Of a stretch of 64,000 nt of DNA, positions 2,575-61,338 are shown piece after piece (position 1 is the stretch's first letter; each line of letters begins with the position of its first letter). This stretch comes from Candidatus Marinacidobacterium sp. (GTDB lineage: Bacteria > Acidobacteriota > Vicinamibacteria > Marinacidobacterales > Marinacidobacteraceae): contig OZ242011.1 of assembly GCA_965204755.1 (NCBI GenBank), positions 3,040,001-3,104,000 of the forward strand, in the 5' to 3' direction. The position numbers and the translations under genes are program-made. The notes beneath the pieces are model-generated. The model was not told the origin of the DNA and ran no database searches. It saw only the letters and a list, made by a program, of their open reading frames with translations.

Positions 2575-3365
2575 CCGCCGCCGGCGACGGGGCCCGGCCG
2601 CTGCTCCGGGCCCGCGGCCTGGTGAAGGGTTTCGGCGCCGGCGCCGCCCGGATCCCGGTGCTCCGGGGCCTCGACTTCGACGCCGCCGCCGGGGAGATGG
2701 TGGCGGTGGTGGGCCGGAGCGGGGTGGGGAAGACCACGCTCCTCCAGGTGCTCGGCCTCCTCGACCGGCCGGAGGCCGGCTCGCTCGACTTCGCCGGGGA
2801 GGACGCGGCGGCGCTTCCCGAACGCGCCGCCGCCGCCTTCCGCAACCGCCGCGTGGGGTTCGTCTTCCAGCACCACCGCCTGCTCCCCGAACTGACCGCC
2901 GTGGAGAACGCCTCGCTCCCGCTCCGCATCCGGCGCGAGCCGAGAAGGCGCGCCGAGTCCCGGGCGGAGGCGCTCCTCGCCGACCTCGGGCTCGGCGACC
3001 GGCTCCACCACCGGGCGGAAGAACTGAGCGGCGGGGAGCAGCAGCGGGTGGCGGTGGCCCGCGCGCTCGCCGGCGAGCCCTCCCTGCTCCTCGCCGACGA
3101 ACCGACCGGGAACCTCGACGACGAATCCAGCGCCCTGCTCATGGATCTCCTGGTCCGGCTTCACCGGGCGCGGGGGCTCACCGCCGTCATCGCCACCCAC
3201 AGCGGAGCGGTCGCCGGGCGCTGCGGCCGGGCGCTCCGGCTGGAGGGCGGCGTCCTGCGCCCGGCCGGCGGCGGCCCCGGCCCGCTCCCGCCGGCAGCCG
3301 GTCGAGGGAGTCCGGGGAGCGCCCGCCCGGGCGAGGCGCGGGGCGCTTTTTCCGCGGGCTGCTAA
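2571..3365 (+). CDS. lolD: Lipoprotein-releasing ABC transporter ATP-binding protein
   Basis: GRSGVGKTT, GFVFQHHRLLPELTA, LSGGEQQRVAVARAL, LADEPTGNLD; overlaps lolE stop. Confidence 0.9.
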   Translation: MTAAGDGARPLLRARGLVKGFGAGAARIPVLRGLDFDAAAGEMVAVVGRSGVGKTTLLQVLGLLDRPEAGSLDFAGEDAAALPERAAAAFRNRRVGFVFQHHRLLPELTAVENASLPLRIRREPRRRAESRAEALLADLGLGDRLHHRAEELSGGEQQRVAVARALAGEPSLLLADEPTGNLDDESSALLMDLLVRLHRARGLTAVIATHSGAVAGRCGRALRLEGGVLRPAGGGPGPLPPAAGRGSPGSARPGEARGAFSAGC

Positions 3366-17344: not shown

Positions 17345-17646
17345 CCCCGGGCATGTGTCTTCGACCCGTGTCTTTCGCGGGAGCGACGCTTCGGACGAGT
17401 CGCCCGCGGGTTCGCGCGGCTCTGCCCATGCGGCTGCTGCCGGGCGATGCCGGGTCGGGGAGGACCGTCTTTACGAAGGACCTCTCGCGTTTGGCTGGGG
17501 CAGGTCCGCGATCCGCTGTCCGGTCATCGCTCGCCGGAAGAAACCGACCGGTTCGGTCTTGCCGGTCACCGGGTCGCGCTCCCCTACCGCTCCGCGGAAT
17601 CGGGCCGCGCCTGCACACCTGAACCGAGGAAGCCGGCGCCGATGTT

Positions 17647-17814
17647 GATCGTGCGCTATCCTCTGTTTCCAAGGGCCGCATCCTACTAGCTTTCCTATAA
17701 AAGGAGTGCCTGGCAACTCCCAGAACAGGGACTCGGCTTGCCGAGCGGCGGACAGTGCGCGGCGTCCGTCGGGCGGCCCCACGGGGACTACCAGGCGCAG
17801 TCCCTACCCCCGCT
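17647..17814 (-). ncRNA. Putative structured RNA family A, copy 4 (distal)
   Basis: GGGACU/AGUCCC, CUCGGC/GCCGAG and GGAGU/ACUCC hairpins; GGGCCGC/GCGGCCC long-range helix. Confidence 0.6.
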
Positions 17815-17997
17815 TCGGGGTTTGCGAAGGACCTCTCGCGTTTGGCTGAGGCAGGTCCGCGATCCGCTGTCCGGTCATCTCTCGCCGGGAGGAAGCGACC
17901 GGTTCGGCCTTGTCGGTCACCGGGTCGCGTTCCACCACCGCTCCGCGGAATCGAGCCGCGCCTGCACGCCCGAAACGAGGAAGCCGGCGCCGAGGTT

Positions 17998-18169
17998 GTT
18001 CGTGCGCTATCCTTGGCATCCAAGGGCCGCATCCTACTAGCCCTACCGAACGGTTGAGGAGTGCCTGGCAACTCCAAAACAAGGGACTCGGCTTGCCGAG
18101 CGGCGGACAGTGCGCGGCGTCCGTCGGGCGGCCCCACGGGGACTACCAAGCGCAGTCCCTACCCCCGCT
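17998..18169 (-). ncRNA. Putative structured RNA family A, copy 3
   Basis: Same scaffold; C-to-U change in loop 1 keeps the predicted kissing pair as G-U. Confidence 0.6.
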
Positions 18170-18352
18170 TCGGGGTTTGCGAAGGACCTCTCGCGTTTGG
18201 CCGAGGCAGGTCCGCGATCCGCTGTCGGGTCATCGCTCGCCGGAACGAACCGATTGGTTCGACCCTGCCGGTCACCGGGTCGCGCTCCGCCACCGACCCG
18301 CGGTATCGAGCCGCGCACGCCCACCCGAACCGAGGAAGATCGCACCGATGTC

Positions 18353-18520
18353 GATCGTGCGCTACCCTCACGCGCAAAGGCCGCATCCTACTAGCTGACC
18401 CAAAAGGTGAGGAGTGCCTGGCTACTCCAAGATCAGGGACTCGGCTTGCCGAGCGGCGGGCAGTCGCGGCGCCCCCGGGCGGCCCCACGGGGACTACCAG
18501 GCGCAGTCCCCACCCCCGCT
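18353..18520 (-). ncRNA. Putative structured RNA family A, copy 2
   Basis: Same scaffold; compensatory GGAC/GUCC to GGGC/GCCC. Confidence 0.6.
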
Positions 18521-18701
18521 TCAGGGTTTGCGAAGGACCTCTCGCGCTTGGCCGAGCAGGTTCGCCAGTTGCTTCTCGGTCATCTCTCGCCGGAAGAAAC
18601 TGATCAGATCGACCTCGTCGGTCGCCGGGTCGCGCTCCACCACCGCTCCGCGGTATCGAGGCCGCCCGCACACCCGAACTGAGGAAGCCGGCGCCGATGT
18701 T

Positions 18702-18870
18702 GATCGTGCGCTATCCTCACTCGTAAGGGCCGCATCCTACTAGCTAACCGAACGGTTGAGGAGTGCCTGGCAACTCCAAGAAAGGGGCTCGGCTTGCCGA
18801 GCGGCGGGCAGTGCGCGGCGTCCGTCGGGCGGCCCCACGGGGACTACCAGGCGCAGTCCCCACCCCCGCT
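18702..18870 (-). ncRNA. Putative structured RNA family A, copy 1 (starts at nuclease stop codon)
   Basis: Begins immediately after the TGA at 18873-18871; same scaffold. Confidence 0.62.
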
Positions 18871-19368
18871 TCAGGGTTTGCGAAGGACCTCTCGCGCTCG
18901 GTCAAGCAGGTTCGCGAGTTGCTGCTCGGTCATCTCTCGCCGGAAGAAACTGATCAGATCGACCTTGTCGGTCACCGGGTCGCGCTCCACCACCGCGAAG
19001 TAGAAAATCCCGTCGACTTCGCCCCACAGGCACAGGCGGTTGTCGAAGGCCTCCGGCGGCCGGTTCGCCGGCGGGCTGGGTCGGAATACGACCCTCGGCG
19101 CTTCCAACAGCGCCGGCAGCCGCCGGTAATCCTCGGTCCCAAGTTCGGGATGGCCCCTCTTCTTCCTCCTGGGTTGTGCGAGCCGTCCATCCTGTTTCTT
19201 CATGATGCGGTCGGGGAGTCGCACCACGGCGGTCCGGGCCCCGATCCAGTCGCGGACTTCGGGGTCCAGCGCGCCGGCGCGCAGGGCGCCCCGGGGTTCG
19301 GCTCGGAACCGGGCGAAGATCGGGCTCTCGAAGACGGAGCGGGCGAGTGTCCCGTTCAGGTCATCCAT
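18871..19368 (-). CDS. Stand-alone BECR-fold (PBECR2-like) putative ribonuclease 1
   Basis: VVRL...KKQ...HPELGTEDYRRLPALLEAP, then beta-strands ending LISFFR; pattern recalled from PBECR2 domains, not searched. Confidence 0.65.
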   Translation of the reverse strand: MDDLNGTLARSVFESPIFARFRAEPRGALRAGALDPEVRDWIGARTAVVRLPDRIMKKQDGRLAQPRRKKRGHPELGTEDYRRLPALLEAPRVVFRPSPPANRPPEAFDNRLCLWGEVDGIFYFAVVERDPVTDKVDLISFFRREMTEQQLANLLDRAREVLRKP

Positions 19369-19577
19369 CGGGCCCCGGCCCCGGCCTCTTTCCGGGAAGG
19401 GCGTTCGCCGGCGGGGATGGCCCGCCCGGGTCGGCGCGCGGGGCTCGTTCCGTCCGGCGGTCCGGAGGTTCGATCCGCCGATTACCGCGGCCCCGGCCTC
19501 CGGCGGCGCGAGCGTTCGCGCCTCCCGACGGTGCGGGAGTTCGCGCCTCCGGACATCCGCGTCGTTTGGTTATGGTT

Positions 19578-19698
19578 CCGGGTGGCGCATGTGACACGGT
19601 GAAATTCTCCCGGCCGTAACCGATCCCTTTCGGGATGAGAGTGCTATGTGGGGTTCCCGGCTCCGGCCGGATGGGAGGCCCCACCATGCGCCGCCCGG
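19578..19698 (-). ncRNA. Putative structured RNA family B, copy 0
   Basis: Closing stem CCGGGCGGCGCAUG/CAUGCGCCACCCGG, GUGGGG/CCCCAC, AUCCC-GAAA-GGGAU, CUCCC/GGGAG pseudoknot; 12 nt after nuclease 2 stop. Confidence 0.65.
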
Positions 19699-19710
19699 GT
19701 GGGCAGCGAG

Positions 19711-20361
19711 TCACCACCGGGGGGGAGGTCGCGTCGCCCGTCGCTTGGCGCGTCCGACATCCTTCTCGTGGATCCTCTGGAAGTTCGTGAGGAAGATTTC
19801 GTTGTTCACGGTCTGCTTTATGGCGGCCTTGTAGTGATGGCCTTCGCGCTCTCCGAGGAAGAGAGTGAGATGGCGTCCGCTCGGTTCGGTGATCACCGCT
19901 CCCCCTTCGATGACATCCGGAAGCCGGCGATAGTCGTCGAGCGTGAGGTCCGGGTGGCGAACCACCTGCTTCACTGCGCTTTCCGCTGACAGTCGCACGA
20001 CCCGCGCGGGAGGGAACCCCCCTTCCGGCAGGGGCTCCAAGCCGGCTCGCGCCTCGTCGGTCAGGACCGCAACCGGCAATTCGCCGATTCGCGCCTTGAT
20101 GGCGGCGTCCTCGATCTTTATGAACAGCGCCTTTCCGGCATCCGGCAGGACTTCCCGGTAGGCCTCCACTCGCTCGAAGAACCCGGGGAGGACGGGACTC
20201 CCTTCGCCGAGGAGCCGTCGCACCGTCGCGCGGGCGGTCTCCGGGTCGGTGTTCTCGACCCATTCGAGGAGGGCGAGCAGGGCCGCCGGGCCCCGACCCG
20301 TCCGCGGAGGTGAGGCCGCGGGCGGGGGTCGGCTCCTTCGGCGGGGCGGCGCCGGAGGCAT
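19711..20361 (-). CDS. Stand-alone BECR-fold (PBECR2-like) putative ribonuclease 2
   Basis: VVRLSAESAVKQVVRHPDLTLDDYRRLPDVIE...YKAAIKQT...EIFLTNFQR; ATG 20361 lies just past the upstream gene's stop. Confidence 0.68.
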   Translation of the reverse strand: MPPAPPRRRSRPPPAASPPRTGRGPAALLALLEWVENTDPETARATVRRLLGEGSPVLPGFFERVEAYREVLPDAGKALFIKIEDAAIKARIGELPVAVLTDEARAGLEPLPEGGFPPARVVRLSAESAVKQVVRHPDLTLDDYRRLPDVIEGGAVITEPSGRHLTLFLGEREGHHYKAAIKQTVNNEIFLTNFQRIHEKDVGRAKRRATRPPPRW

Positions 20362-20368
20362 CCGGATG

Positions 20369-21583
20369 TCAGCCGGCGCGGGCGGCCGCGGCGGGCGACT
20401 CCGACTCCGCCGACTCCTCCGCCGGAGGCAGGTCCACGCCGACCCCCAGCGGATGGAGGGCGTCGCCGTCCGCCGTCGGTTCCCGGAGGGCGCGAGCCAC
20501 GACATCGTCCGGGGCGCCGTCCGGGGCATCGTCCGGGGCGCGTTCCCGCGCCGAGTCGGCGGCGAGCAGGACCGGGCGGAGCGGCTCCGACAGCCGGCCC
20601 GCCTCCGGGGCCTGGCGGGAGATGCTGGCGTCGGCGGCCTCCCTGGTCAGGAAGTTCACGAACTCCCGCGAGCCGCCCTTCCAGCCGCTCAGGGTCTCGG
20701 CGAGCGCCATCGGGTGCCGCTCTTCGCGCTCGCCGAAGACGCAGCCGGGGTGGTAGGTCCGCACCGCGTTCCCGAAGACGCTGAACCGCCGTCCCACGCG
20801 GTCGCTCAGGACGAAGGTCATCGGCCCGGTGAGGACCGCGACATGGGCCAGCCCGACGGTCCGCCAGGCCAGGTCGGCGACATCGATGGCCGCGGTCTCC
20901 GGGTCGGTCTCGCCGATCTCCAGGCCGGTGAGGAACACCGGGCGCGTCCGCTCCGGGTCGGAGATCAGGTCGATGAGGCCGGCCACGCTCTCGGCGTCCT
21001 GCACCACCCAGGGCGTCGCGCGGAGCCGCCAGCCGTAGTCGGTCAGCCCCGGGGAGTCGGCCAGCCGGCGGACGATCTCCGGCGCGGCGGCCGTGTGCGC
21101 CGCCCTGCCGGTCAGCAGCGTGGCGGAGAGGCGGGTGCAGTCGGTGGTCTCCACCAGGAAGACCTCGACCCGCCAGGCGGCCCGCGGCCGCCGGCGGCGC
21201 TCCACCGCGGCGCCGAAGCACCGGCCGTCCGGGAACTCCCGCTCCTCGGTGACGACGGCGGGGCGCGCGTTCGGGCGGCGGGGCGGGCCGGCCGCCGTCG
21301 GCGTTTCGGGCCGCGCCGGCGGTTCGACGCGCTGCCCGCGGCCCCGGCGGGGGCCCTCCAGGAAGCGGAGGATGCGGTCCCGCGACGCGGCGAACTCGCC
21401 GCCGCGCCCGTCGCGCGCCACATCGGCGCAGACCGCGGCCGCCGGGGCGAGCGCCGCCCGCCCGGACCGGACGCGGCGCGCCGGGCGGCGGTCAGCCGCG
21501 GGAAGGGGATGCGGCGCCGGCTGGCGGGCCGGGAGGGGCAGGGGATTCGGTCGGGGTTGGGGTAGGGTCGGCGGATGGGGCAT
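20369..21583 (-). CDS. Conserved-looking hypothetical protein
   Basis: Globular core DPERTRPV...LAWRTVGLAHV...FSVFGNAVRTYHPG...HPM with host-like codon use; start uncertain. Confidence 0.65.
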   Translation of the reverse strand: MPHPPTLPQPRPNPLPLPARQPAPHPLPAADRRPARRVRSGRAALAPAAAVCADVARDGRGGEFAASRDRILRFLEGPRRGRGQRVEPPARPETPTAAGPPRRPNARPAVVTEEREFPDGRCFGAAVERRRRPRAAWRVEVFLVETTDCTRLSATLLTGRAAHTAAAPEIVRRLADSPGLTDYGWRLRATPWVVQDAESVAGLIDLISDPERTRPVFLTGLEIGETDPETAAIDVADLAWRTVGLAHVAVLTGPMTFVLSDRVGRRFSVFGNAVRTYHPGCVFGEREERHPMALAETLSGWKGGSREFVNFLTREAADASISRQAPEAGRLSEPLRPVLLAADSARERAPDDAPDGAPDDVVARALREPTADGDALHPLGVGVDLPPAEESAESESPAAAARAG

Positions 21584-21646
21584 CGAGCCTCCTGGGGTGG
21601 GGGATTTCCGATGGGGTCGGGGGGAGGTCTCCCGCGGGCGGCGGGT

Positions 21647-21790
21647 GGAGTTCGCCGGCCGGGGGCGGGTGGAGTTCGTCCGCCGGGGGCGGGCGGAGTT
21701 CGTCCGCCGGGGGCAATGGGAGTTCGCCGGCCGGGCGCGAGGGGAGTTCGCCGGCCGGGCGCAGTGGGAGTTCGCCCGGCGGGGGCGGGC
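21647..21790. repeat. 24-bp tandem repeat x6 with invariant GGAGTTCG core
   Basis: ggagttcg at 21647, 21671, 21695, 21719, 21743, 21767. Confidence 0.92.
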
Positions 21791-21801
21791 GGGGGCCGGG
21801 C

Positions 21802-47269: not shown

Positions 47270-47860
47270 ATGCGGAGGGAGCCGGGCCCGGTCGCGACGG
47301 AAGACCACCTCGAAGAGGCCGCCGGCGCCGACTACGCCCTCGCCCGCCGCCGCGTCCGCTCCATCGTCGGGGGCCCGGCGTTCGACCGCTTCCTTCGCCA
47401 AGTGAGGGACTACCGCAACCGAACCTACCCGCCGGAGGCGAAGAGAGTCCACCGGGTACGGATGAAAGACGAAGACAAGGCTCGCATCGGACATCTCTTC
47501 GTCGCCGCGCTGGGCGATTCGGCGCGCCAAGTCCTGCCGCCGCCTCCGGGCCTCGGGGCTACGCCGACCCGCCTGGTGCGGCTGTCCCCGGAAACTGCGG
47601 TCAAACAGGTACTCCACCACGGAGACCTGACGCCGGCCGACTACCGACGGATCCCCGACCTCATCGAAGACGAACGCTTCCAGAAGACGGGCGACCGTAA
47701 ACTGGCCTTCTTCGGCTACTACGATGGCCAATGGCGCCGCGCCATCGTGAAGCAAGCCACGAGCGCCGACGAGCTCTATCTCGCCAGTTACCACAAGGCT
47801 CGCCCGAACCAAGTCCCCGAGTCCGTCCGCACGGAACGGGAGCAGTCACAACGGGACTAG
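47270..47860 (+). CDS. Stand-alone BECR-fold (PBECR2-like) putative ribonuclease 3, paralog of 19711..20361
   Basis: KARIGHLFVAAL, LVRLSPETAVKQVLHHGDLTPADYRRIPDLIE, AIVKQA, ELYLASYHK. Confidence 0.68.
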   Translation: MRREPGPVATEDHLEEAAGADYALARRRVRSIVGGPAFDRFLRQVRDYRNRTYPPEAKRVHRVRMKDEDKARIGHLFVAALGDSARQVLPPPPGLGATPTRLVRLSPETAVKQVLHHGDLTPADYRRIPDLIEDERFQKTGDRKLAFFGYYDGQWRRAIVKQATSADELYLASYHKARPNQVPESVRTEREQSQRD

Positions 47861-47977
47861 GTGGCGCACGGTGGGGCCCGCAATCCGAGCAACGCTCGGC
47901 AACCCCACGTAACGCGCTGTCCCCGTAAGGGGAACTGGCTACGGCTTGCGGAGTATTACCGTGTCACGTGCGCCGCC
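47860..47977 (+). ncRNA. Putative structured RNA family B, copy 1 (subtype x)
   Basis: Abuts TAG; GGCGCAC/GUGCGCC, CCGAGC/GCUCGG, UCCCC-GUAA-GGGGA, CCGCAA/UUGCGG pseudoknot. Confidence 0.68.
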
Positions 47978-48086
47978 GAGAATGCTAGCACGCCACGCCC
48001 CGTGCGTCGGCGCCACTTGTCGGGCCGGGGCATCCGGTCGGAAGCCGCCCGCGGCGAAGGTCGGCGAGGCCGATGACTCCGTTGAT

Positions 48087-48212
48087 CCGGTGTGGCGCAC
48101 ACGGTGGGGCCTCCTGTCCAGCCGAGGCTGGCAACCCCACATTTCACCGGTCATTCCCGAAGGAACGGGCCACGGGTAGGAGAATGTCACCGTCCGTCGC
48201 GTGCGCCACCGG
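48087..48212 (+). ncRNA. Putative structured RNA family B, copy 2 (subtype y)
   Basis: CCAGCC/GGCUGG, UUCC-CGAA-GGAA, CUCCUG/UAGGAG pseudoknot. Confidence 0.65.
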
Positions 48213-48379
48213 GAAGTATAGCGGCGCCGGGGTCGCCTGCCGGGGGCGGGTCGAACCGGGGGCGCCGGTGGGCGGGGAGCCTCCGGATGGCCGAGAGGCG
48301 CCCGAACTCTCACCGCCGGAAACTCCATGGTCCGGAGGAACTCGTCTTGGGAGCGCGGGTACGCCACTCCGGTACCCGA

Positions 48380-48503
48380 CCGGTGTGGCGCACGGTGGGG
48401 CCCGCAATCCGAGCAACGCTCGGCAACCCCACATAACGCTCTGTCCCCGTGAGGGGAACTGGCTACGGCTTGCGGAGTATTACCGTGTCACATGCGCCAC
48501 CGG
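48380..48503 (+). ncRNA. Putative structured RNA family B, copy 3 (subtype x)
   Basis: Near-identical to copy 1; GUAA to GUGA keeps a GNRA loop. Confidence 0.65.
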
Positions 48504-48611
48504 GGACATTAGCGCCCCGGATGTCGCGCGTCAGCGCCACCTGTCTCGCTCGGGGCATCGGGTCGGAAGCCGCCTGCGGCGAAGGTCGGCGAGGCCGATG
48601 ACTCCGTTGAT

Positions 48612-48735
48612 CCGGGGTGGCGCACGGTGGGGCCTCCCATCCGGTTGAAGCCGGCAACCCCACATTTCACCTGTCATTCCCGAAGGAACGGGCCACGGGC
48701 GGGAGAATGTCACCGTGCGTCGCGTGCGCCGACGG
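48612..48735 (+). ncRNA. Putative structured RNA family B, copy 4 (subtype y)
   Basis: CCGGUU/AGCCGG, CUCCC/GGGAG pseudoknot. Confidence 0.65.
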
Positions 48736-48949
48736 GAGCGTAGCGCTTTCACTACGCGCCGCCCGGCCGGCCAGCCGGCCCGAGGAGCGAGAGAATCGCC
48801 GGACCGGCGAGGCGCGGATCGCGGATGAGGGCGTCGGCCGGCGGCTCCGGGCCGCCGAAGGCGGGGAGGCCTCCCGCCCGTAGAATCGCCGCCCAACCGG
48901 AATTGCCCGATACGCCCTGCGAAATCCACCCGGACGGAGGGAGTCCGTC

Positions 48950-51900
48950 GTGAGCGGGACGGGGAAGCGGCTGATCGAGGTCGCGTTCCCGTTGGAGCAG
49001 GTGTCCAAGGACTCCGTCCACGAGAAGAATGTGCGGCACGGGCATATCTCGACCCTGCACATCTGGCCGGCGCGGAGGCCGCTGGCGGCGAGTCGGGGGG
49101 TGGTTCTCTCGACGCTGTTGCCGGACCCGGGGGCCTCCGACCGGCGGCGGGTGCTGGAGCGGATGGCGGGGCATTGGACGGTGATCCGGGACGAGGACGG
49201 GGAGGTCGTCGACCGGGTGTGGAAGGACGGGATCTTCCATTGGGGGAAGGAGAACCGGCGGGAACTGGACGCCTTCCGGGAGGAAGTCCGCGAGGTGTTC
49301 GGGGGGCGGGCGCCGCGGGTGCTGGATCCGTTCGCGGGGGGCGGGGCGATTCCGTTGGAGGCGATGCGGCTGGGGTGCGAGGTGGAGGCGGCGGACCTGA
49401 ACCCGGTGGCCTGGTTCATCCTGCGGTGCGCGCTCCACTACCCGCGGCTCGCTTCGGGGGAGCGGCGGCTGCCGGAGTCCCTGTCGGCGTATCCGGCGTT
49501 CGGGGAGGCGCTTGGGTGGGCGGCCGACCGGGAGGCGGCGAGTCTCGGCGGGCGGCGGCGGGGGAGGAAGAGGAAGGCGGGCCCGGAGGCCGGCTCGGAG
49601 GCGGGGCCGGCGCTGCTGACACCCGGTCGGGCGGGCGCGCCGGCGGTTCCGTTCGCGTGGCACCTGCGGGCGTGGGGGGAGCGCGTTCTCGCGGGGGCGC
49701 GGCGGGAGGTCGCGGCGCGGTATCCGGTGTATGCGGACTTCGAGCCGAAACGGCGGAAGGGGCGGGGCTACGACTCGCCGGAGGTCGGTTTCGAGCCGCG
49801 GCCCATGCGGCAGTTGGAACCGGACGCCGAAGGGCTGGTTTCGGTGGAGGAGTTGAACCGGGAGTTCGGCGAGGAATACCTGGAGGACGAGCGGAATCCC
49901 CGGTGGGTGGCGAAACCGCCGGTGGCCTACCTGTGGGCGAGGACCGCGAAGTGCGCGGGGTGCCGGGCGGAAGTGCCGTTGTTGAAGACGCGATGGCTTT
50001 GCCGGAAACCCGAGGGCGCGAATCGGCCGGCGAAGCGCGTGCTCCTCGAGATGACGCCGCGGGCGGACGGGAGCGGGGTGGACTTCGGGCTCGATCTCGA
50101 AGTTCCGGAGGAAGCGGAGACTCCGGCGGCGCGGCGCGAGAGCGACCGGAAATTGGGCGCCGGGACGATGACCCGGCGGGGCGCGACCTGCCCGTGCTGC
50201 GGCGCGATCGCCACGATGGCCGACCTGCGGCTGGAAGGGCGGGCCGGGCGGCTCGGGGAGCGGATGACCGCGGTGGTGGTGGACGGCCAGCGGGGGAAGG
50301 AGTACCGGTTGCCTACGGAGGCGGAGTTCGCGGCGGCGGAGGTGGGCGAGGAGGAGTTGGAGGGGTTGTATGCGGGTATCCCGTTCGGACTTCCCGACGA
50401 GCCCACTCCGAGACCGGGGATGGGCGCGTCGCGCGCGTTTTCGGTGCGGGGTTACGGCTTCGACACCTGGCGGCGCCTGTTCACGAATCGGCAGTTGCTC
50501 GCCATCGGCATCCTGCTACGGGAGATCCGGGTCTGCGCCGAAGAGATGGACGGGTATCCCGAAGCGTGGCGCGAAGCGTTGTGGGTGACTCTCTCCGGCG
50601 CGCTGAGCAAGTTCACGGACTACAGCAGCGCCATCTGCTCCTGGCACAACAGCGGAGAAAAACTGAGGAGCACTTTCGCCCGCTTCGCGCTGCCGATCGT
50701 GTGGGACTACTGCGAAGTCAACACCCTGGCGGCGACTACCGGGGGATTCCTCGCCTCCGTCGAATGGGTGGCGCGGGTCATGGCGCACCTGACGGAGATC
50801 GAGAGCGCGAGTGCGCCTTCGGTGCAGCGGCGGTCGGCGATCGAGGCGATTCCCGGCGAGTTCGATCTCATCTGCACCGACCCGCCGTACTACGACGCGA
50901 TTCCCTACTCCGACCTGATGGACTTCTTCCACCTCTGGCTTCGCCGCGCGCTCCACGGCGTCTCGGAGGAAACCGACCGCGCGCTCGCCTCGGCGCTCGG
51001 CCCGAAGTGGGACGCGGACGCGAACGACGGGGAACTCATAGACGACGCCAACCGGTTCGACGGCAGCCGCGAAGCCTCGAAACGGAACTACGAGGACGGC
51101 ATGGCGCGGTGCTTCGCGCGGTTCCGCGACGCGCTGCGGGACGACGGCCGGTTCGTGGTCGTCTTCGCCAGCAAGGACCCGAACGCCTGGGAGACGCTGG
51201 TCTCCGCGATCATCCGCTCCGGTTTCGTGGTTTCCGCTTCGTGGCCGATCCAGACCGAGATGGCGACGCGCCAGCGGGGCCGGGCGTCGGCGGCGCTCGC
51301 CTCTTCGATCTGGCTGGTGTGCGGGAAGCGGCCGGCGGCCGCGAGGCGCGGCTGGGACCGCCAGGTGCTCCGGGCGATGCGCCGGAACATCCGGGAACAG
51401 TTGCATCGGTTCTGGGACGCGGGGATTCGCGGGCCGGACTTCGTATGGGCGGCCACCGGGCCGGCGCTCGAAGCGTTCAGCCGTCACCCGTTCGTCGAAA
51501 AGGCGGACGAAGAAGGCGAACGAATGGGCGTGGCGGAGTTCCTCGGGCAGGTCCGGCGCGAAGTCGTGGGCTTCGCGGTGAGCCGGGTGCTCGCCCGCGA
51601 AGAGGGAGGAGCGGATTCTTCCCTCGTCGAAGGCCTCGACGACCCGACCACCTACTACCTGCTGCACCGGAAGGACTTCGGGCTCGACCCGGCGCCGGCC
51701 GGCGCCTGCATCCTCTACTCGCTCTCCTGCGGCGTCTCCGACTCCGACCTCACCGGCCGCCTCGACTTCCTGGCCCGCAAGGAGTCTCGCGGCGGGAGCG
51801 AAGCGGAGGCCGAAGCGGACGACGACGACGGCGGCGCCGCCGGAGGCCGGATGCGGCTCAAACCGTGGGCCCGCCGCCGTCGGTCCGTCGGCGATCCCGG

Positions 51901-52225
51901 GGCGGACGGTTCGCCCCCGCCGTTGATCGACGCGCTGCATCGGACGATGCGCCTCTGGAGGGAGGGCGACCAGGGGAAGGTGGACGCCTACATCGCGCAA
52001 ACCGGGATCGCGGAGAGCGAACTGTTCGGGCGCGTCCTCCAGGCGGTGATCGAGATGGCGGAACCGGACTCGGAAGAACGCAGCCTGCTGGAATCCATCC
52101 GCAACCATGTCCCGGCATTCCGCGCCGCGGCCCCCGCGCCTTCGGGACCGCGGCCGGCGAGTCTGCCCTTCGCCGCGCCGGACGCTCCGGAACCATCCAC
52201 CCGATCCGCCGCCTCCGAGTCCTGA
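48950..52225 (+). CDS. DUF1156-family adenine-specific DNA methyltransferase
   Basis: KRLIEVAFPL, STLHIWPARRPLAASR, VLDPFAGGGAIPLEAMRLG, CxxC Zn ribbons, TDPPYYDAIPYSDL. Confidence 0.9.
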   Translation: MSGTGKRLIEVAFPLEQVSKDSVHEKNVRHGHISTLHIWPARRPLAASRGVVLSTLLPDPGASDRRRVLERMAGHWTVIRDEDGEVVDRVWKDGIFHWGKENRRELDAFREEVREVFGGRAPRVLDPFAGGGAIPLEAMRLGCEVEAADLNPVAWFILRCALHYPRLASGERRLPESLSAYPAFGEALGWAADREAASLGGRRRGRKRKAGPEAGSEAGPALLTPGRAGAPAVPFAWHLRAWGERVLAGARREVAARYPVYADFEPKRRKGRGYDSPEVGFEPRPMRQLEPDAEGLVSVEELNREFGEEYLEDERNPRWVAKPPVAYLWARTAKCAGCRAEVPLLKTRWLCRKPEGANRPAKRVLLEMTPRADGSGVDFGLDLEVPEEAETPAARRESDRKLGAGTMTRRGATCPCCGAIATMADLRLEGRAGRLGERMTAVVVDGQRGKEYRLPTEAEFAAAEVGEEELEGLYAGIPFGLPDEPTPRPGMGASRAFSVRGYGFDTWRRLFTNRQLLAIGILLREIRVCAEEMDGYPEAWREALWVTLSGALSKFTDYSSAICSWHNSGEKLRSTFARFALPIVWDYCEVNTLAATTGGFLASVEWVARVMAHLTEIESASAPSVQRRSAIEAIPGEFDLICTDPPYYDAIPYSDLMDFFHLWLRRALHGVSEETDRALASALGPKWDADANDGELIDDANRFDGSREASKRNYEDGMARCFARFRDALRDDGRFVVVFASKDPNAWETLVSAIIRSGFVVSASWPIQTEMATRQRGRASAALASSIWLVCGKRPAAARRGWDRQVLRAMRRNIREQLHRFWDAGIRGPDFVWAATGPALEAFSRHPFVEKADEEGERMGVAEFLGQVRREVVGFAVSRVLAREEGGADSSLVEGLDDPTTYYLLHRKDFGLDPAPAGACILYSLSCGVSDSDLTGRLDFLARKESRGGSEAEAEADDDDGGAAGGRMRLKPWARRRRSVGDPGADGSPPPLIDALHRTMRLWREGDQGKVDAYIAQTGIAESELFGRVLQAVIEMAEPDSEERSLLESIRNHVPAFRAAAPAPSGPRPASLPFAAPDAPEPSTRSAASES

Positions 52226-52292
52226 ACTACGGGGGCTCCGGTATCCGGCCCCCCGGCCGGCATGACCGGTTGGGCGAAGGGGACTGACTCGG

Positions 52293-52414
52293 CGGGGTGG
52301 CGCGCGGTGGGGCCTCCCTTCCGGCCGGAACCGGCAACCCCGCCTATCACCAAGCATCCCGAAGGAACGGGTCACGGGCGGGAGAATTTCGCCGTGCGTC
52401 GCGCGCGCCGCCCG
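52293..52414 (+). ncRNA. Putative structured RNA family B, copy 5 (not next to a nuclease gene)
   Basis: GGCGCGC/GCGCGCC compensatory closing stem, GGUGGGG/CCCCGCC, CUCCC/GGGAG. Confidence 0.6.
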
Positions 52415-52542
52415 GAGCCGAAGCCAAGCCGGGAGTGATTCGCGGCGAGGGGGGCTCGCTGCCCGCCGCCCCCTACTATTTCCCTTCCACTTTCCTTCCC
52501 CGTCGGGCCCTCCGCCGGTCCGGCCGTTCGCCGGGAGGCCCG

Positions 52543-55500
52543 ATGGCACACGACACTTCGACAACGACGCCGCCGGAGCGGCGGCCCGCTTCCCGGGCGC
52601 GGCTGCCGCTCCTCCTCGCCCTGTGCGCCCTCGCCGCTCCCGGCGCGCCGGCAACCGCGCAGGAAACCGCGCCGCCGGTCTTCGACGACCTCCGGCTGCG
52701 CTCCATCGGCCCGGCGGTGATGGCCGGACGGGTCTCCGCGCTGGAAGTCGTTCCCGGCCGTCCGCACGAGTTCTACATCGGGACGGCGTCCGGCGGCCTC
52801 TTCCGGACGCGGAACAACGGCGCGACCTGGGACGCGCTCTTCGAGCGCTACACCACGACCTCCATCGGGGCGCTGGCGCTCGCGCCTTCCGACCCGGCGA
52901 CGGTCTGGGTGGGAACCGGCGAGCCGGCGAACCGCCAGAGTTCCTCTTTCGGCGACGGCGTATACCTCTCGTTCGACGCCGGGGAGAGTTTCACCCGAGT
53001 CGGGCTCGAAGAGAGCGAACACATCGGCCGCATCGTGGTGGACCCGCAGCGGCCGCGCCGCGCGTTCGTGGCCGCGCTCGGCCCGCTCTGGCGCTCCGGC
53101 GGCGACCGGGGCGTCTTCCTCACCGAAGACGGCGGCGCGACTTGGCGGCATTCGCTCGCCATCTCGGAAGACACCGGCGCGGTGGACCTGGAGATGGACC
53201 CGACGAATCCCTCGATCCTCTACGCCGCGGCCTATACCCGCCGAAGAACTCCCTGGGGTTTCAACGGCGGCGGGCCGGAAGGCGGCATCTACCGCACCAC
53301 CGACGGCGGCGCCACCTGGTCGCGCCTCGCCGGGGGTTTGCCGGAAGGCCCGGTCGGCCGCATCGGCCTGGAGATCGTGGAATCGAACCCGACGGTGGTG
53401 TACGCGACGGTGGAGCACGCCACCGAGTCGGGAACCTGGCGCTCGGAGGATCGGGGCGGGACCTGGGAGCGGATCTCCGACCTGAACCCCCGCCCGATGT
53501 ACTACTCGCACATCGAAGTGGATCCGGCGGATCCGCGCCGGGTGTATGTCCTCGGCGCGCAGTTCCACCTGTCGGACGACGGCGGACGCACCTTCCGCGA
53601 AAACCGCGACATGACGCCGACCTACGACATCGGCGTGCACGGCGACCACCACGCCCTGTGGATGGATCCGGAGAACGGTGACCACCTGCTGCTCGGCGGC
53701 GACGGCGGCGTGTACGAGTCCTGGGACCGCGCGGTCTCCTGGCGCAAGATCAACAACCTCCCGCTCACCCAGTACTACGCGATCTCGCTGGATATGGAAA
53801 CTCCGTACAACATCTACGGCGGCGCGCAGGACACCCATTCCTGGGTCGGCCCGTCGGCCACGCGCAACCAGGCCGGCATCCTGAACTCGGACTGGAAGCA
53901 GACGAACTTCGGCGACGGCATGGACCAGGCCGCCGCGCCCGACGAACCGGGTCTCGCGTTCACTTCGTCGCAGAACGGGAACATCGTCCGCATCGACACG
54001 GCGAACGGGCAGCGCCTGACCGCGCGTCCGTTCCCCGAGGAGGACGAAGACCGCTACCGCTTCCATTGGCTATCGCCGATGGACACTTCGCCGCACCGCG
54101 CCGGCCGGGTGTACTTCGGCGGCAACCGGATGTTCCTCTCGGACGACTTCGGCGCGGTCTGGCGCGCCACCGAAGACCTGACGCTCCGGGAAGACCGGAG
54201 CGAGTTGCCCATCCTCGGCGTCCTACCGGCGGAAGGAATCCTCTCGATGCACGACGGCGTGTCGCACTGGGGAACGCTCACCACGCTGGCGGAATCCCCG
54301 CTGGTTCCCGGCCTGCTCTACGCGGGCTCGGACGACGGCCGGGTATCGCGGTCCGACGACGACGGCGCGACCTGGGTGTTCCTCGAAGACAACCTGCCGA
54401 CGGAGACCCTCCGAGCCACGATCAGCCGGGTCACGCCGTCCTCCCACGAACCGGACCGGCTCTATGTCGCGGTGGACCGCCACCATTCGGGTGACTTCGC
54501 GCCGCTGGCGTTCGTTTCCGAGGATCGCGGCGAAACCTTCCGGGAGATCGGCGGCGGCCTGCCGCGCGGCTGGGTGAACGACCTGGTGGAGCACCCGGAC
54601 GGCGCCGACCTGCTCGTGGCCGGGACGGAAGTCGGGGCTTTCGTTTCGTTCGACCGGGGCGGTTCGTGGATGCGGCTGGGCGGCGGGCTGCCCCATGCGC
54701 CGGTGGACGACATCGAAATCCACCCGCGCGACCGGGACCTGGTGCTCGGCACGCACGGCCGGTCGATCTACATCCTCGACGACAGCGCCCCGCTCGCCCG
54801 GCATGATCCGGACGCCGGCGTCCAACTCTTCGAGCCGCGCCCGGCGCTCGTGTACCTCCCCTGGAAGCACGAGAGTTACGAGGCGCAGGCGCGCTACGCC
54901 GGGGAGAACCCGCCGGCGGGCGCGCTGCTGACGGTGTTCCTGCCCGAGGGCGCCGTCGCGGGGACGCCGCCGGAGATGGAAGTCCGGAACTCCGGGAAGG
55001 TGGTGGCCCGCCCGACCGTCGAGGCGCGGGCGGGCTTCCAGCGCGTCGTCTGGGACTTGGCCGCCGCTCCCGAAGACACCGCGTCCGGGTCGGCGGAATC
55101 CGGAGGCGAAGACGACTGCGCCATCCCCGGCCCGCGCGCCGCCGTCGGCCGCTATACCGTCCGGTTGACCGCGGGCGGCGTGGAACGGGAAGCGCCGCTC
55201 GAAGTGCGCCTCGACCCCTCGGTTACCGTGAGCGAAGCGGCCTACGCCGAGCGGACGGGTTTCCTGCTGGACATCCGCAACACGCTGGTGGAGGCCTGCC
55301 GCGCCGCCGCGCCGTTCGCCGACGCGAACGAAGACGAGTTCACCGAGGCGCAGCGCTCTGCGCTCACGGACCTCCGCTCCGGCGGCGGCTTCCGCAACCC
55401 TTCCGCCCGCTCCCGCCTCGCCCGCCTCTACTCCGAGTTCACCGGCGACCGCGTCCGCCAGGGCACGCTCGACGCCCCCACCCCGGTGCATCGCCGCCGC

Positions 55501-55557
55501 TTCGCCTCCCTCCGTTCGCGCCTCCTCGCCGCCGCCGGCCTCCTCGAATCCCGCTGA
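52543..55557 (+). CDS. Secreted BNR/Asp-box (VPS10/sortilin-like) beta-propeller glycosyl hydrolase-like protein
   Basis: RSIGPAVMAGRV, repeated S/TxDGGxTW Asp-boxes, HGDHHALW, GTHGRSIYILDD; GGAGG RBS before ATG 52543. Confidence 0.88.
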   Translation: MAHDTSTTTPPERRPASRARLPLLLALCALAAPGAPATAQETAPPVFDDLRLRSIGPAVMAGRVSALEVVPGRPHEFYIGTASGGLFRTRNNGATWDALFERYTTTSIGALALAPSDPATVWVGTGEPANRQSSSFGDGVYLSFDAGESFTRVGLEESEHIGRIVVDPQRPRRAFVAALGPLWRSGGDRGVFLTEDGGATWRHSLAISEDTGAVDLEMDPTNPSILYAAAYTRRRTPWGFNGGGPEGGIYRTTDGGATWSRLAGGLPEGPVGRIGLEIVESNPTVVYATVEHATESGTWRSEDRGGTWERISDLNPRPMYYSHIEVDPADPRRVYVLGAQFHLSDDGGRTFRENRDMTPTYDIGVHGDHHALWMDPENGDHLLLGGDGGVYESWDRAVSWRKINNLPLTQYYAISLDMETPYNIYGGAQDTHSWVGPSATRNQAGILNSDWKQTNFGDGMDQAAAPDEPGLAFTSSQNGNIVRIDTANGQRLTARPFPEEDEDRYRFHWLSPMDTSPHRAGRVYFGGNRMFLSDDFGAVWRATEDLTLREDRSELPILGVLPAEGILSMHDGVSHWGTLTTLAESPLVPGLLYAGSDDGRVSRSDDDGATWVFLEDNLPTETLRATISRVTPSSHEPDRLYVAVDRHHSGDFAPLAFVSEDRGETFREIGGGLPRGWVNDLVEHPDGADLLVAGTEVGAFVSFDRGGSWMRLGGGLPHAPVDDIEIHPRDRDLVLGTHGRSIYILDDSAPLARHDPDAGVQLFEPRPALVYLPWKHESYEAQARYAGENPPAGALLTVFLPEGAVAGTPPEMEVRNSGKVVARPTVEARAGFQRVVWDLAAAPEDTASGSAESGGEDDCAIPGPRAAVGRYTVRLTAGGVEREAPLEVRLDPSVTVSEAAYAERTGFLLDIRNTLVEACRAAAPFADANEDEFTEAQRSALTDLRSGGGFRNPSARSRLARLYSEFTGDRVRQGTLDAPTPVHRRRFASLRSRLLAAAGLLESR

Positions 55558-55599
55558 CCCTTCGTTCGCTTGCGCCCCGACCTTCGCCGAAGCCCCGAC

Positions 55600-57390
55600 A
55601 TGAAGATCCTCCACTACCTCGAGATCGAGAACTTCAAGCGGTTCGGCGAGCGCCAACGCATCGAACTCGACCACCCGACCGTCCTGATCGGCCCGAACGA
55701 CTGCGGCAAGACCACCGCCCTCCAGGCCATCGCCCTCTGGTCGCACGCCGTCCGCCACTGGTGGGACGCGAAGGGAGCGAACGCTCGCCGGGACGCGCCC
55801 GCCTCGCTGGTCCGGTCGGAGATCGTCTCGGTTCCGGTGCGTCGGACGCGCCACTACTGGCGCAACCTCGTCGCAAGGAAGGGCAACCGCGAGGTCCCGC
55901 TGCGTATCGCCGTGGGAATGGAGCAGGACGGCAAGGTCGAACCCGTGGCGATGCGGTTTCGCAGCCACGGAGACGACCTCGTGTACTGCGTTCCCGAAGA
56001 GGAGACCCTGGCGAACCGCGATCTGCTCCGTTCCGCCTCGCGGGTGAAGGTGGACCTGCTGTATCCCATGTCGGGACTCGAAATGGACGAGCCGGTGCTC
56101 CTGCCGCGGCGCATCGACGCGTTGCTGGGGCAGGGACAGACCGCCTCGATCCTCCGAAATGTCTGCCTGGAGGCGCGCGGCTCCTCGGAGGACGACTGGC
56201 GCGAGGTCACGCATCGGATGCGGCGCCTGTTCGCAGTCGAACTCGGTGAACCGGTGGCGAACGCTCGCGGAGGCATCACGCTCGAGTATCGCCGGGCCGG
56301 AGCCCGCGAACCGCTCGATGTCTCCTCGGCCGGCCGCGGACTGCAGCAGGTACTGCTGCTCCTCGCTTATCTCTACTCCGATCGTGGTCGAGTCCTCCTG
56401 ATCGACGAACCGGACGCCCACCTGGAACTGCTCCGCCAGAGGCAGGTGCATGTGCTGCTCCGGGATCTCGCCGCGAAGCGCGGCACCCAGATCGTGCTGG
56501 CCACGCATTCCGAAGAAGTGTTGCGGGAGGCGCTCGACCACAACCTCACGCTCCTGCTCGACGGCCGCGCGGAGTCGTTGGCCGGTAAGGGCGAAATCGT
56601 CGACGCGCTGCGCCACTTCGGGGCGGAGCACTATGTCCGGGCGCGGCAGAGCGGGTATGTGCTCTATCTCGAAGGGCGGACCGACCTCGACCTCCTGCGG
56701 GCGCTCGCGGAACACTCGGGGCATGCGGTCCTCGACCGCTGGGACGAGATGCCCAATGTGTTCTTCGTCCGCGACAACTACCCCGATCCCGACGCGGACT
56801 CCGAGTTGGAACGGGTGGAGGGAGGCTACGGCGTCACGCCGCGGAAGCACTTCTTCGGCATCCGCGACATGGCGCGGGGCCTTCCTGGACTCGCGATCCT
56901 CGACAGCAAGGGCCGTTCCCCCAGCGACACGGACGACGGCGGCCTTCGTATCGCCTACTGGCGGCGCTACGAGATCGAGAACTACTTCATCACGCCCGCG
57001 GTGCTGGAGGCATATGCGCTCTCCCGTTACGGGGACGCGACCCTCTTCGCCGGGTTCCGTACCGAGATCGAGTCCGTCTTGGACACGGTGGTCCGGGAGC
57101 GCGTGTTCGGGGGCAACGAACGCGACTTTCTCACTTGGAAGGGTCTCGCCGAAGACGCCGCCCGGCTCCTGTGGGAAGCCCGGACCGAACGACTGAAGGT
57201 CAGCGCGGTGGCGGAAGCGTTCTTCGAGGCCTTGGCGGAGCGCCTGAACCGCCCGGTCCTGCTGCGCAAGCGCGACTTCCGCGACTTGGTTCCGTTCGCT
57301 TCCCGCGAGGCGATTCCGGCAGAGGTCGGAGAGAAGTTGGATCTGCTGAAGAGCCTCTTCGAACGCGCAGAACCCGGGATCGTGGAGTAG
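55600..57390 (+). CDS. ABC-type ATPase fused to a TOPRIM-like domain (OLD/PARIS-like)
   Basis: IENFKRF, IGPNDCGKTT, SSAGRG, LIDEPDAHL, LATHS; LYLEGRTD, ILDS, RYEIENYF. Confidence 0.75.
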   Translation: MKILHYLEIENFKRFGERQRIELDHPTVLIGPNDCGKTTALQAIALWSHAVRHWWDAKGANARRDAPASLVRSEIVSVPVRRTRHYWRNLVARKGNREVPLRIAVGMEQDGKVEPVAMRFRSHGDDLVYCVPEEETLANRDLLRSASRVKVDLLYPMSGLEMDEPVLLPRRIDALLGQGQTASILRNVCLEARGSSEDDWREVTHRMRRLFAVELGEPVANARGGITLEYRRAGAREPLDVSSAGRGLQQVLLLLAYLYSDRGRVLLIDEPDAHLELLRQRQVHVLLRDLAAKRGTQIVLATHSEEVLREALDHNLTLLLDGRAESLAGKGEIVDALRHFGAEHYVRARQSGYVLYLEGRTDLDLLRALAEHSGHAVLDRWDEMPNVFFVRDNYPDPDADSELERVEGGYGVTPRKHFFGIRDMARGLPGLAILDSKGRSPSDTDDGGLRIAYWRRYEIENYFITPAVLEAYALSRYGDATLFAGFRTEIESVLDTVVRERVFGGNERDFLTWKGLAEDAARLLWEARTERLKVSAVAEAFFEALAERLNRPVLLRKRDFRDLVPFASREAIPAEVGEKLDLLKSLFERAEPGIVE

Positions 57391-57399
57391 CCTTCCCGA

Positions 57400-58635
57400 A
57401 TGCTCTTCCACGAACTGCGCCTTTCCGGTCTGCTCTCCTTCGGTCCGGACGGCGTCTCGCTGCCGATGAAGCCGCTCAATGTGCTGATCGGCCCGAACGG
57501 TTCCGGCAAGTCCAACTTCCTGGAAGCGATCTCCTTGTTCCGCGCGGCGCCGGGGGAAGTCACCGCGCCGATATCGCGCAGCGGAGGCATCCGCGAGTGG
57601 CGTTGGAAGGGGGACGGTCCCGGGGCCAACCTGAGACTCCACGCCCGTTTGGATGTGCCGGGCGTCGGTGAAGTGCAGCACGAAATCGCGTTCGGTGAAC
57701 GCGAGGGCGCCACGGTCGTTACGGAAGAGATGCTTCGGTGTTGCGGACCGGATGACCCGGAGAACTTGCAGAGCCGCTATTCCCGCCCTCCGTGGTCGAC
57801 GATTCTCGTGCGGCGCATCGCGCGGCTCACAGAAGCGAAAGGAGAGGATGCCACGAAGAATCCGGAAACAGCCGATCGTGTTTCCCGAGAGTCCCGGGAA
57901 ACCGCACGATCGGTGGACTACGCGGAGGACTTGCGTCCAAGGGAGTCCATCCTGTGCTTGGCTGCCACGCCCGACCATCCGGTGCCGTGGCGCGTGAAGG
58001 AGCAATACGAAGGCATCCGGATGTATCGCAACTGGTCGTTCGGCCCGAACGCCGAGGTGCGTGTTCCGGCCAGCGCTCACGACCGCAGCGACTTTCTCGA
58101 GGAAGACGCCGGTAATTTGGCGCTCGTTCTGTCGCACCTGCAAGGAGAGCGGAAGAGGAAGTTTCTGGGGGCCGCCGGCCGATTGTTCGAGGGGATCGTG
58201 GACTTCCGCTGTCCGGTTACCGGCGGCGTCGTCTCGCTGTTCCTCGAGGAGGGCGACGGACGGATCATCCCGGCGAGCCGTCTGTCGGGCGGGACACTGC
58301 GCTACCTGAGCCTCCTCGCGATCCTCCTCCACCCGGAGCCGCCGCCCGTCATCTGCATCGAAGAACCGGAATTGGGTCTGCACCCGGACCTGTTGCCGAC
58401 CCTGTGCGACCTGATGCGGGAGGCTTCGGCGCACAGTCAGTTGATCGTCACGACCCACTCCGACATCTTGGTGGATGCGTTGACCGAGGAGCCGGAGGCC
58501 GTCGTCGTCGTCGAGAAGGAGGAAGGGCAGTCCACCATGCGCCGGCTCGACGGCGAGAACCTCGCGAAGTGGATCGAGAACTACGGACTGGGCGAACTGT
58601 GGATTTCCGGCGAGTTGGGCGGGAATCGCTGGTGA
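57400..58635 (+). CDS. AAA_21-type ABC ATPase
   Basis: LIGPNGSGKSN, LSGGTLRYL, IEEPELGLHP, TTHS, C-terminal LGELWISGELGG. Confidence 0.88.
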   Translation: MLFHELRLSGLLSFGPDGVSLPMKPLNVLIGPNGSGKSNFLEAISLFRAAPGEVTAPISRSGGIREWRWKGDGPGANLRLHARLDVPGVGEVQHEIAFGEREGATVVTEEMLRCCGPDDPENLQSRYSRPPWSTILVRRIARLTEAKGEDATKNPETADRVSRESRETARSVDYAEDLRPRESILCLAATPDHPVPWRVKEQYEGIRMYRNWSFGPNAEVRVPASAHDRSDFLEEDAGNLALVLSHLQGERKRKFLGAAGRLFEGIVDFRCPVTGGVVSLFLEEGDGRIIPASRLSGGTLRYLSLLAILLHPEPPPVICIEEPELGLHPDLLPTLCDLMREASAHSQLIVTTHSDILVDALTEEPEAVVVVEKEEGQSTMRRLDGENLAKWIENYGLGELWISGELGGNRW

Positions 58636-59261: not shown

Positions 59262-59347
59262 TCGTCGGGACCCGCCGCCGGCCCGGCAGCGCGACGGGTG
59301 GAGAGCGGCAACGGTGCTCGCCTCATCGAAGGCGCCGTACTGACGCC

Positions 59348-61319: not shown

Positions 61320-61338
61320 CGACGCGCCGCCCGCGGAC

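Follow-up and report, generated by a model that had tools for sequence, protein, structure and literature searches.

The 64,000-nt stretch of DNA considered here (the window) comes from Candidatus Marinacidobacterium sp. (Acidobacteriota, Vicinamibacteria; assembly GCA_965204755.1, contig OZ242011.1, forward-strand positions 3,040,001 to 3,104,000), whose genome is a single contig of 3.98 Mb with 71.7% GC; this genome is designated G000, and its sister genome G001. Three open reading frames (ORFs) of the window, P1, P2 and P3, are under study. Each is predicted to encode a PBECR3-like RNase domain, and each is followed on the same strand, at or next to its stop codon, by a structured non-coding element, as a preliminary description of the window had proposed; the elements are RNAs of two classes, t2 and L1. 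P1 (18871-19368, - strand) encodes a stand-alone domain of 165 aa of the L1-partnered type, assigned from the ORF call, the family alignment and its place in the L1-partnered clade. P2 (19711-20361, -; the longest ORF starts at 20529) is of the t2 type by ORF call, family alignment and tree, and P3 (47270-47860, +; 196 aa) is of the t2 type by ORF call, family alignment, an AlphaFold2 (AF2) model and structure matches.

The three proteins are homologous: they can be aligned with one another, with five further G000 paralogues, and with database relatives. The motif reported earlier as common to all three is recovered in this alignment, where the family is invariant at V103, K112, Q113, L120, Y125, P129, and E133 (P3 numbering) and nearly so at R104, L105, H117, and R126; H69 and S126 do not vary among phage members, and T116 hardly does. 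PBECR domains are among the commonest predicted effectors in phage virions. They are described by Iyer et al. (2017; PMC5512222), and the conserved helix His and last-strand Ser/Thr agree with the PBECR active site described there; catalysis is predicted. A model of P3 built on the family alignment (pLDDT 86.7, pTM 0.82) has, over residues ~100-185, two helices (107-116 and 122-133) followed by four strands, which corresponds to the BECR core of an N-terminal helix and then a four- to five-stranded sheet like that of RelE, colicin D, or barnase. This C-terminal half resembles RelE/ParE-type toxins, BrnT, CdiA-CT, and colicin D, with modest Z scores of 3.5-5.8 (best 7vd7_A at 5.8, 3u97 at 5.3, and 5i4q_A at 4.9); the top Foldseek match is BrnT (E 0.019, probability 0.99), and the list is coherent despite the modest scores. 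The BECR fold foreseen in the preliminary description is in this sense recovered by structure search.

At the sequence level, an initial search with P3 using a word prefilter found ten close relatives only; a family profile run against 1.84 billion representatives found 991 proteins (cluster representatives) at E ≤ 1e-3. Ten long profile relatives include nine with Phage_Mu_F at the start, one with the pre-toxin domain PT-TG, and two that reach PBECR3, one of them at the cut-off. PBECR3 (PF18812) is found in four of 20 scanned profile relatives, with only P0145 reaching the gathering cut-off (30.5 vs. 30 bits). P1-P3 themselves have no match in PADLOC or PHROGs. Since most of the long relatives and a G000 paralogue (G000:3967468-3968781; phrog_220, E 2.2e-84) are fusions to MuF, the phage minor head and DNA-pilot protein, the family can be assigned to the PBECR-type tips of MuF polymorphic toxins. 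By these matches it is a divergent PBECR3-like tip, probably a sister or sub-branch of PBECR3 by a transitive link, and P1-P3 are, with the P3 model, divergent PBECR3-like BECR-fold domains and predicted RNases. Outside the lineage of the window, most occurrences of the domain are at the C-terminal end of MuF head proteins of phages. The "stand-alone" RNases of the preliminary description are in this respect a local derivative of a module whose main form is a C-terminal MuF tip of a phage accompanied by RNA, and P2 lies behind a HEC-07-like gene (see below).

The t2 element, ~123 nt and pseudoknotted, was located with a covariance model over the genome (R1; R2 is the corresponding L1 model). 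A single copy follows P2 (19573-19696, -; 130.1 bits). The array after P3 is made of two ~524-nt units, each with two diverged copies: variant A beginning at the P3 stop codon (47859-47985, +; 120.6 bits), variant B (48090-48218, +; 113.8 bits), then a second A (48383-48509, +; 120.1 bits) and a second B (48615-48741, +; 127.9 bits). An orphan copy lies between hmaB and the next gene (52295-52420, +; 103.6 bits). There are 13 copies in G000 and 34 in G001.

The covariation argues for t2 as a structured RNA. Among the 13 G000 copies, 11 of 27 proposed pairs show double compensatory changes, distributed over helices P1, P2, P3, and P4 of the RNA, and the observed score was reached by none of 500 shuffles. 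In 39 phage copies, the downstream structure that the preliminary description had expected homologs to conserve is indeed conserved: 16 of 24 pairs show double changes (again 0/500 shuffles match), and 96.7% of cells are paired vs. 39-50% with slid partners. The phage alignment was fitted to the model, which favours structure, but the signal is probably real because the slid controls are low and helices P1 and P4 vary freely. A GUGGGG/CCCCAC helix crosses helix P2 to form the pseudoknot; it is almost invariant, with compensatory variants GUAGGG/CCCUAC and GUGGA/UCCAC in distant genomes. The core blocks GGUGGGGCC, ACCCCACA, CUACGGCC, and UCACCGUGUC are highly conserved, and the motif is kept from ~50% to 74% GC with compensatory changes. 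Among the 66 of 100 distinct sequences with all anchors, core spacing modulo 3 is distributed 20/13/33; because it is not in triplets, t2 is non-coding. One or more open frames occur in most elements, which the GC content leads one to expect, and neither a conserved frame nor a small immunity ORF was found within the elements. Whatever its role, t2 can be counted as a new and well-supported RNA motif of phages, one whose protein partner is defined.

L1 is ~130 nt long and occurs in four copies after P1: copy 1 starts at the P1 stop codon (18744-18872, -; R2, 132.1 bits), followed by copies at 18395-18522 (124.9 bits), 18042-18171 (136.5 bits), and 17690-17816 (124.6 bits), all on the - strand. 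They belong to a tandem array (17470-18996, -) with a 351/355-nt repeat in 4.3 units, each comprising ~125 nt of the P1 ORF end, L1, and a ~95-nt tail. Four-copy arrays had been reported at two loci, and they exist (L1 after P1, t2 after P3); the further idea that the element itself had been expanded fits less well, as the units are whole duplicated segments and those of L1 include the end of the P1 ORF. Conservation between units is highest in the L1 part (93-96%), compared with 75-91% in the ORF-derived part, which is frameshifted in units 3-5. G000 has 15 L1 copies and G001 has 33.

The proposed L1 structure consists of four hairpins that are 84.6-100% paired, but with double changes in only three of 20 pairs and most pairs invariant, support for it is weaker than for t2. 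A terminator scan matched nothing but the H3 hairpin of L1 plus its U-tract. The sequence of this hairpin, GCUCGGCAAGCCGAG(C/U), is found at 18787-18802 and 18086-18101 (-) with a U-rich tract behind it, an unusual feature at 72% GC; L1 RNAs may end at this terminator-like hairpin. An exact pattern for an L1 hairpin had no match in viral contigs. The ~95-nt tails (17941-18296 and neighbouring units, -) contain conserved blocks, GCUAGUAGGAUGCGGCCC and GGAUAGCGCACGA, also found at G000:2042083-2042224 and 1840681-1840834, and may represent a second RNA element. A promoter scan found no sigma-70-like promoter, a result that is uninformative for this phylum. A search for RNA sequencing runs containing the locus found none. 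In the contigs of four DNA sequencing runs, the locus was seen to exist in other samples, with short-read contigs breaking within the arrays.

Neither class corresponds to a catalogued RNA. The window contains two tRNAs only by Rfam 15 at the gathering threshold; the t2 and L1 elements have no match at E ≤ 5 in this check of novelty, which the preliminary description had suggested, and eight phage or acidobacterial loci have nothing at E ≤ 0.1. The elements are like the phage-associated RNA motifs in Rfam in being structured RNAs at a fixed site in phage structural-gene operons, but unlike them in that t2 and L1 match no Rfam 15 family. In the open-access full-text literature searched, no paper was found to describe an RNA that partners PBECR or MuF tips, and no such RNA is mentioned in the accessible portions of PMC5512222 and of a 2026 preprint on BECR classification.

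The pairing of RNase gene and RNA extends well beyond the window. A protein-selected set from IMG/VR, the best 80 of 148 relatives found with a phage-derived protein alignment, has t2 just 3' on the same strand at 74 of the 80 loci (60.8-99.3 bits); two of the six misses lack flanking sequence, and the other four are near-identical loci without t2 even with filters off. An RNA-selected set, obtained with a loose DNA pattern, lists 80 loci, of which 39 have a strong model match; in 32 of these 39, the RNA is placed at -33 to +42 nt relative to the stop codon of an ORF of the family (for the most part 367-426 aa), and at least three of the seven misses are too near the edge of the locus to judge. 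A pattern scan with a wider protein alignment found five loci in genome contigs and none in viral or metagenome contigs, blanks that are an artefact of the pattern step. In G001, the family has 14 ORFs (15 domain matches), and in 13 of them t2 or L1 sits at the stop codon or overlaps it, often as arrays, with up to seven L1 copies in one array. With these counts and the matching of RNA type to protein clade (see below), the distinct, conserved RNase-RNA module of the preliminary description is real and cognate: the RNase domain almost always has its own folded RNA, at least in these sets, in the position usual for an antidote gene.

Among 61 relatives, t2 is restricted to the taxonomic family of the window (seven of 61 genomes, G000 included); L1 is present in five of 41 relatives; and the family protein was found in four of 301 sampled Acidobacteriota genomes. 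In all three of the non-self Acidobacteriota cases, a t2-like RNA comes directly behind the stop codon; two of them are MuF fusions behind a portal gene, and one is in a low-GC genome. Distant Acidobacteriota, the low-GC genome among them, retain t2 after a MuF C-terminal tip, with compensatory changes. The acidobacterial prophage with a MuF tip and t2 at locus L044 also contains a C4 antisense RNA (RF01695, 56.9 bits; 3217-3295, -). The elements are tied to the RNase genes, as had been claimed, but not exclusively: besides the t2 after hmaB, there are several L1 orphans, and G000 has two t2 copies after a TcmP gene (three-Cys-motif partner; TIGR04474, E 4.3e-47) with no family RNase nearby (G000:C1:1990491-1991741, L002).

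In phages, the next gene after the RNA is a Mu gpG-like or a protease gene, starting no more than 35 nt past the RNA end in 22 of 31 loci with a next ORF found. In this survey of next genes, no protein immunity gene fits in the gap after the tip; with the lack of a conserved frame in the elements, this bears out the earlier observation that no immunity or antitoxin ORF follows these genes. In cultured phages whose MuF has another tip (JBD67) or none (vB_ThpS-P1), the MuF gene borders directly on the next one and t2 is absent. The MuF of Ochrobactrum phage POA1180, which covers the whole query, is followed by a 308-nt gap (L175, 2713-3020) with a weak, reduced t2-like fold (12.9 bits), which may represent a third variant of the RNA but whose predicted folding energy does not improve on shuffled sequence (z = 0.41). 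A scan of phages for P1-type proteins found one locus, L272 (an IMG/VR contig), with 31% identity to the L1-type tip. Downstream it has a match of t2 type (40 bits), and upstream a weak, partial counterpart of the first L1 hairpin; the RNA there may be intermediate in kind between the t2 and L1 classes.

Which RNA a tip is paired with appears to depend on the tip. In a maximum-likelihood tree of 27 tips, the 12 partnered with t2 and the 15 partnered with L1 are separated by one branch (support 100/99), and RNA type follows protein clade without exception. Recombination at the G001 locus L024 is stronger evidence for cognate pairing than this split. Of the three MuF-tip genes placed in tandem here, b and c match almost perfectly over 247 residues, to "DPAWATNPGKHR", and then diverge into two tip types, with t2 after gene b and L1 after gene c. 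Such a joint swap of tip and RNA is typical of polymorphic toxins, whose immunity moves with the tip; here the immunity slot holds an RNA. What these loci show is an RNase-RNA module that is conserved, cognate, and co-transcribable, that comes from phages, and that has no protein immunity gene.

In the lineage of the window, MuF itself seems removed from its phage-head context. The G000 MuF-tip fusion (G000:C1:3965500-3970500, L004) is flanked by a DNA methyltransferase gene (phrog_67) and a convergent gene for a CI/LexA-like repressor, with no portal or head genes. A filter on GC content at third codon positions (GC3), applied for real genes around it, did not discriminate.

P2 and P3 are found instead beside putative defence genes. 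Upstream of P2 is a gene for a 404-aa protein (20369-21583, -) matching PADLOC HEC-07 (E 2.5e-43, profile positions 104-301 of 553), of which it resembles only the N-terminal and middle part, some two thirds. HEC-07 is an Hma-embedded candidate, a single polypeptide with AdoMetDC-like and thioredoxin-like parts and a RelE-family RNase end, and is among the candidates reported to reduce plaquing (both from bioRxiv 10.1101/2024.01.29.577857). The arrangement here is alike in that the upstream gene matches the N-terminal and middle part, a RelE-superfamily-like RNase follows, and the neighbourhood is Hma-type; it differs in that the RNase is not a fused domain but has a PBECR3-like gene of its own, paired with an RNA. 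P2 is in another frame than the HEC-07-like gene, and the HEC-07 profile has no match to it. Because the order of HEC-07-like gene and RNase gene recurs in five other genomes (44-57% identity; L026, L035, L036, L037/L042, and L013/L040), P2 seems to be the effector, now a gene apart, of a HEC-07-like system that has been split and has had its RNase swapped. A 24-nt tandem repeat of 7.4 copies (21613-21792) lies just upstream of the HEC-07-like gene.

Directly 3' of P3 and its t2 array is hmaB (48950-52225; PADLOC HmaB, E 1.2e-108), the first gene of an Hma-type defence island that spans 48950-63762. The orphan t2 follows, then an ORF of ~1043 aa with no PADLOC match, a gene for an ABC ATPase like AriA/GajA (55570-57390), HEC-01A (57400-58635; PADLOC E 2.4e-125), and a gene with weak RmrA/CapP matches (58700-60547).

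The position of the RNA suggests that it restrains the RNase. The reading preferred here, to which a probability of about 0.45 is given, is that it binds the RNase domain and acts as antitoxin or immunity factor by a logic like that of type III toxin-antitoxin (TA) systems. The RNA would be made as the 3' end of the RNase mRNA. With the tip translated last and the RNA starting at the stop codon, it could fold beside the emerging domain once the ribosome leaves, bind the new RNase domain, and keep it inactive, possibly after excision by that same RNase. In phages, the RNA would stop the tip from harming the cell that makes it before MuF has been packaged and injected. In the Vicinamibacteria lineage, the tip would have been freed from MuF or multiplied and put in defence islands, and the RNA amplified into arrays that supply an excess of inhibitor; if that supply fell during infection, the RNase would be set free. 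Diverged copies in one array could widen specificity, or simply resist recombination. Because arrays and orphan copies without a downstream gene exist, action in trans is plausible, and they suggest a need for excess.

Several points weigh against inhibition by the RNA, or against the assignments beneath it. The fold matches of P3 all have Z below 8, with no Foldseek E ≤ 1e-3, and P1-P3 have no Pfam match at E ≤ 1. No t2 is detectable in four of the 78 phage loci with flanking sequence, nor is t2 or L1 found after two-domain proteins with tandem RNase domains (G000:1183765-1185057, L007; and L027 in G001), the sole family genes without RNA in these two genomes. In JBD67 there is no gap after MuF, and other MuF-PBECR proteins seemingly need no neutraliser. 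The perfect agreement of RNA type and clade counts as one evolutionary split rather than as many separate events. Known type III antitoxins sit upstream of the toxin; an element in the 3' untranslated region provides at most one RNA per mRNA, an unfavourable ratio for an antitoxin except where the RNA is longer-lived than the message.

The phage arrangement in particular makes a role in cis a natural alternative. The RNA exactly fills the space between genes F and G, the next gene mostly following within 35 nt, and the stop codon abuts helix P1, so that termination and folding would be coupled. It could be a processing or regulatory site, either the RNase's own substrate or a translational operator in the phage late operon, setting the balance of portal and MuF against gpG, protease, and capsid, or autoregulating the RNase mRNA. 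A precedent of sorts is T4 RegB, a BECR-fold phage RNase that cuts phage mRNAs (PMC5512222), and strict cognate pairing would be equally expected of an enzyme and its site. Arrays of four to seven copies and orphans, however, lack a gene that they could regulate; in defence islands, the stand-alone forms lie outside late operons; and a processing enzyme has no obvious need for fusion to a packaged head protein. A purely cis-acting site is on balance considered rather unlikely. The near-obligate co-occurrence could also reflect a stable ribonucleoprotein, in which the RNA serves as cofactor or scaffold of the tip (for folding, targeting, or packaging) and may even travel in the virion with MuF. 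The highly conserved single-stranded core and variable outer helices would suit such a role, and RNA binding was proposed by Iyer et al. for the inactive MuF-C domain of phage Mu (PMC5512222). The variable parts of the RNA are internally paired (helices P1, P2, and P4), though, leaving no evident free guide-like segment, and diverged arrays behind a single gene better fit a role in dosage or as decoys; a cofactor seems decidedly unlikely.

An alternative in which the link to the RNase is indirect, t2 being a self-cleaving ribozyme that cuts the transcript at the gene end, draws on its nested pseudoknot, invariant junction nucleotides, and freely covarying peripheral helices, as well as on the tandem arrays and phage occurrence that recall several self-cleaving classes. 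It is very improbable: no Rfam ribozyme family matches; the strand order is similar to that of hepatitis delta virus-like ribozymes, but helix and junction lengths, compared by eye, do not fit; and the strict tie to one domain, with a switch to L1 in the other clade, points to a protein partner. As for selfish or generic intergenic repeats (REP- or MITE-like elements, terminators, or recombination sites) lying near these genes by chance or shared mobility, the copy numbers (13 t2 and 15 L1 in G000, 34 and 33 in G001), the orphans after unrelated genes, and the terminator-like H3 hairpin and U-tract of L1 are what might be expected. The same place and strand for t2 in 74 of the 80 protein-selected phage loci, the tracking of protein clade by RNA type, compensatory conservation across ~50-74% GC, and single-copy phage loci without sign of repeat spread have already brought this explanation close to refuted.

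The module resembles two known kinds of system without belonging to either. As in the MuF polymorphic toxins, a conserved MuF N-terminal part is joined at a sharp junction to a swappable C-terminal effector, and solo tips exist; the tip is, as in PBECR proteins, a predicted BECR-fold RNase of that type. MuF toxins of temperate phages are mentioned in PMC11806420. Unlike those, a structured RNA rather than an immunity protein gene occupies the slot after the tip; P1-P3 have no MuF part, and the genes of this lineage lie outside head-gene modules; and P1-P3 reach no Pfam PBECR model. As in the type III systems ToxIN, CptIN, and TenpIN, a predicted endoribonuclease is tied to a pseudoknotted, sometimes tandem RNA with cognate pairing, in a setting of phage defence or abortive infection; type III toxins cut the RNA precursor and are inhibited within a protein-RNA complex. 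The fold is BECR/RelE-like here, however, and of the ToxN/AbiQ (Kid/CcdB-like) kind there; the RNA runs downstream from the stop codon here, but upstream behind a terminator there; the unit is ~123-130 nt here (351-524 nt as duplicated segments), compared with ~36-45 nt there; and the element is single-copy in phages, with array copies diverged (70-96% identical) rather than near-identical. The module departs from the definition of a type III system in toxin fold and gene order, and from that of a MuF toxin system in having no immunity protein.

A fuller proposal, advanced more tentatively than inhibition itself, is that this is a new class of TA system, in which a MuF-delivered BECR-fold RNase tip is neutralised by a co-swapped pseudoknotted RNA in place of a protein. 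It would follow type III logic with another toxin fold and the opposite gene order. It would be widespread in Mu-like phages and captured by bacteria in two forms: as an abortive-infection module (HEC-07-like gene, RNase, and RNA), and as an "immunity island" of diverged RNAs against injected tips.

Apart from its mode of action, a large PBECR3-like family has a near-obligate, co-evolving RNA partner that is absent from Rfam, and this partner is a concrete, testable handle on how PBECR RNases are controlled. If the RNA does inhibit, RNA antitoxins would reach the RelE/BECR superfamily and the polymorphic toxins; the candidate defence module with the HEC-07-like gene would gain an explanation; and bacteria may hoard RNA decoys against injected phage enzymes.

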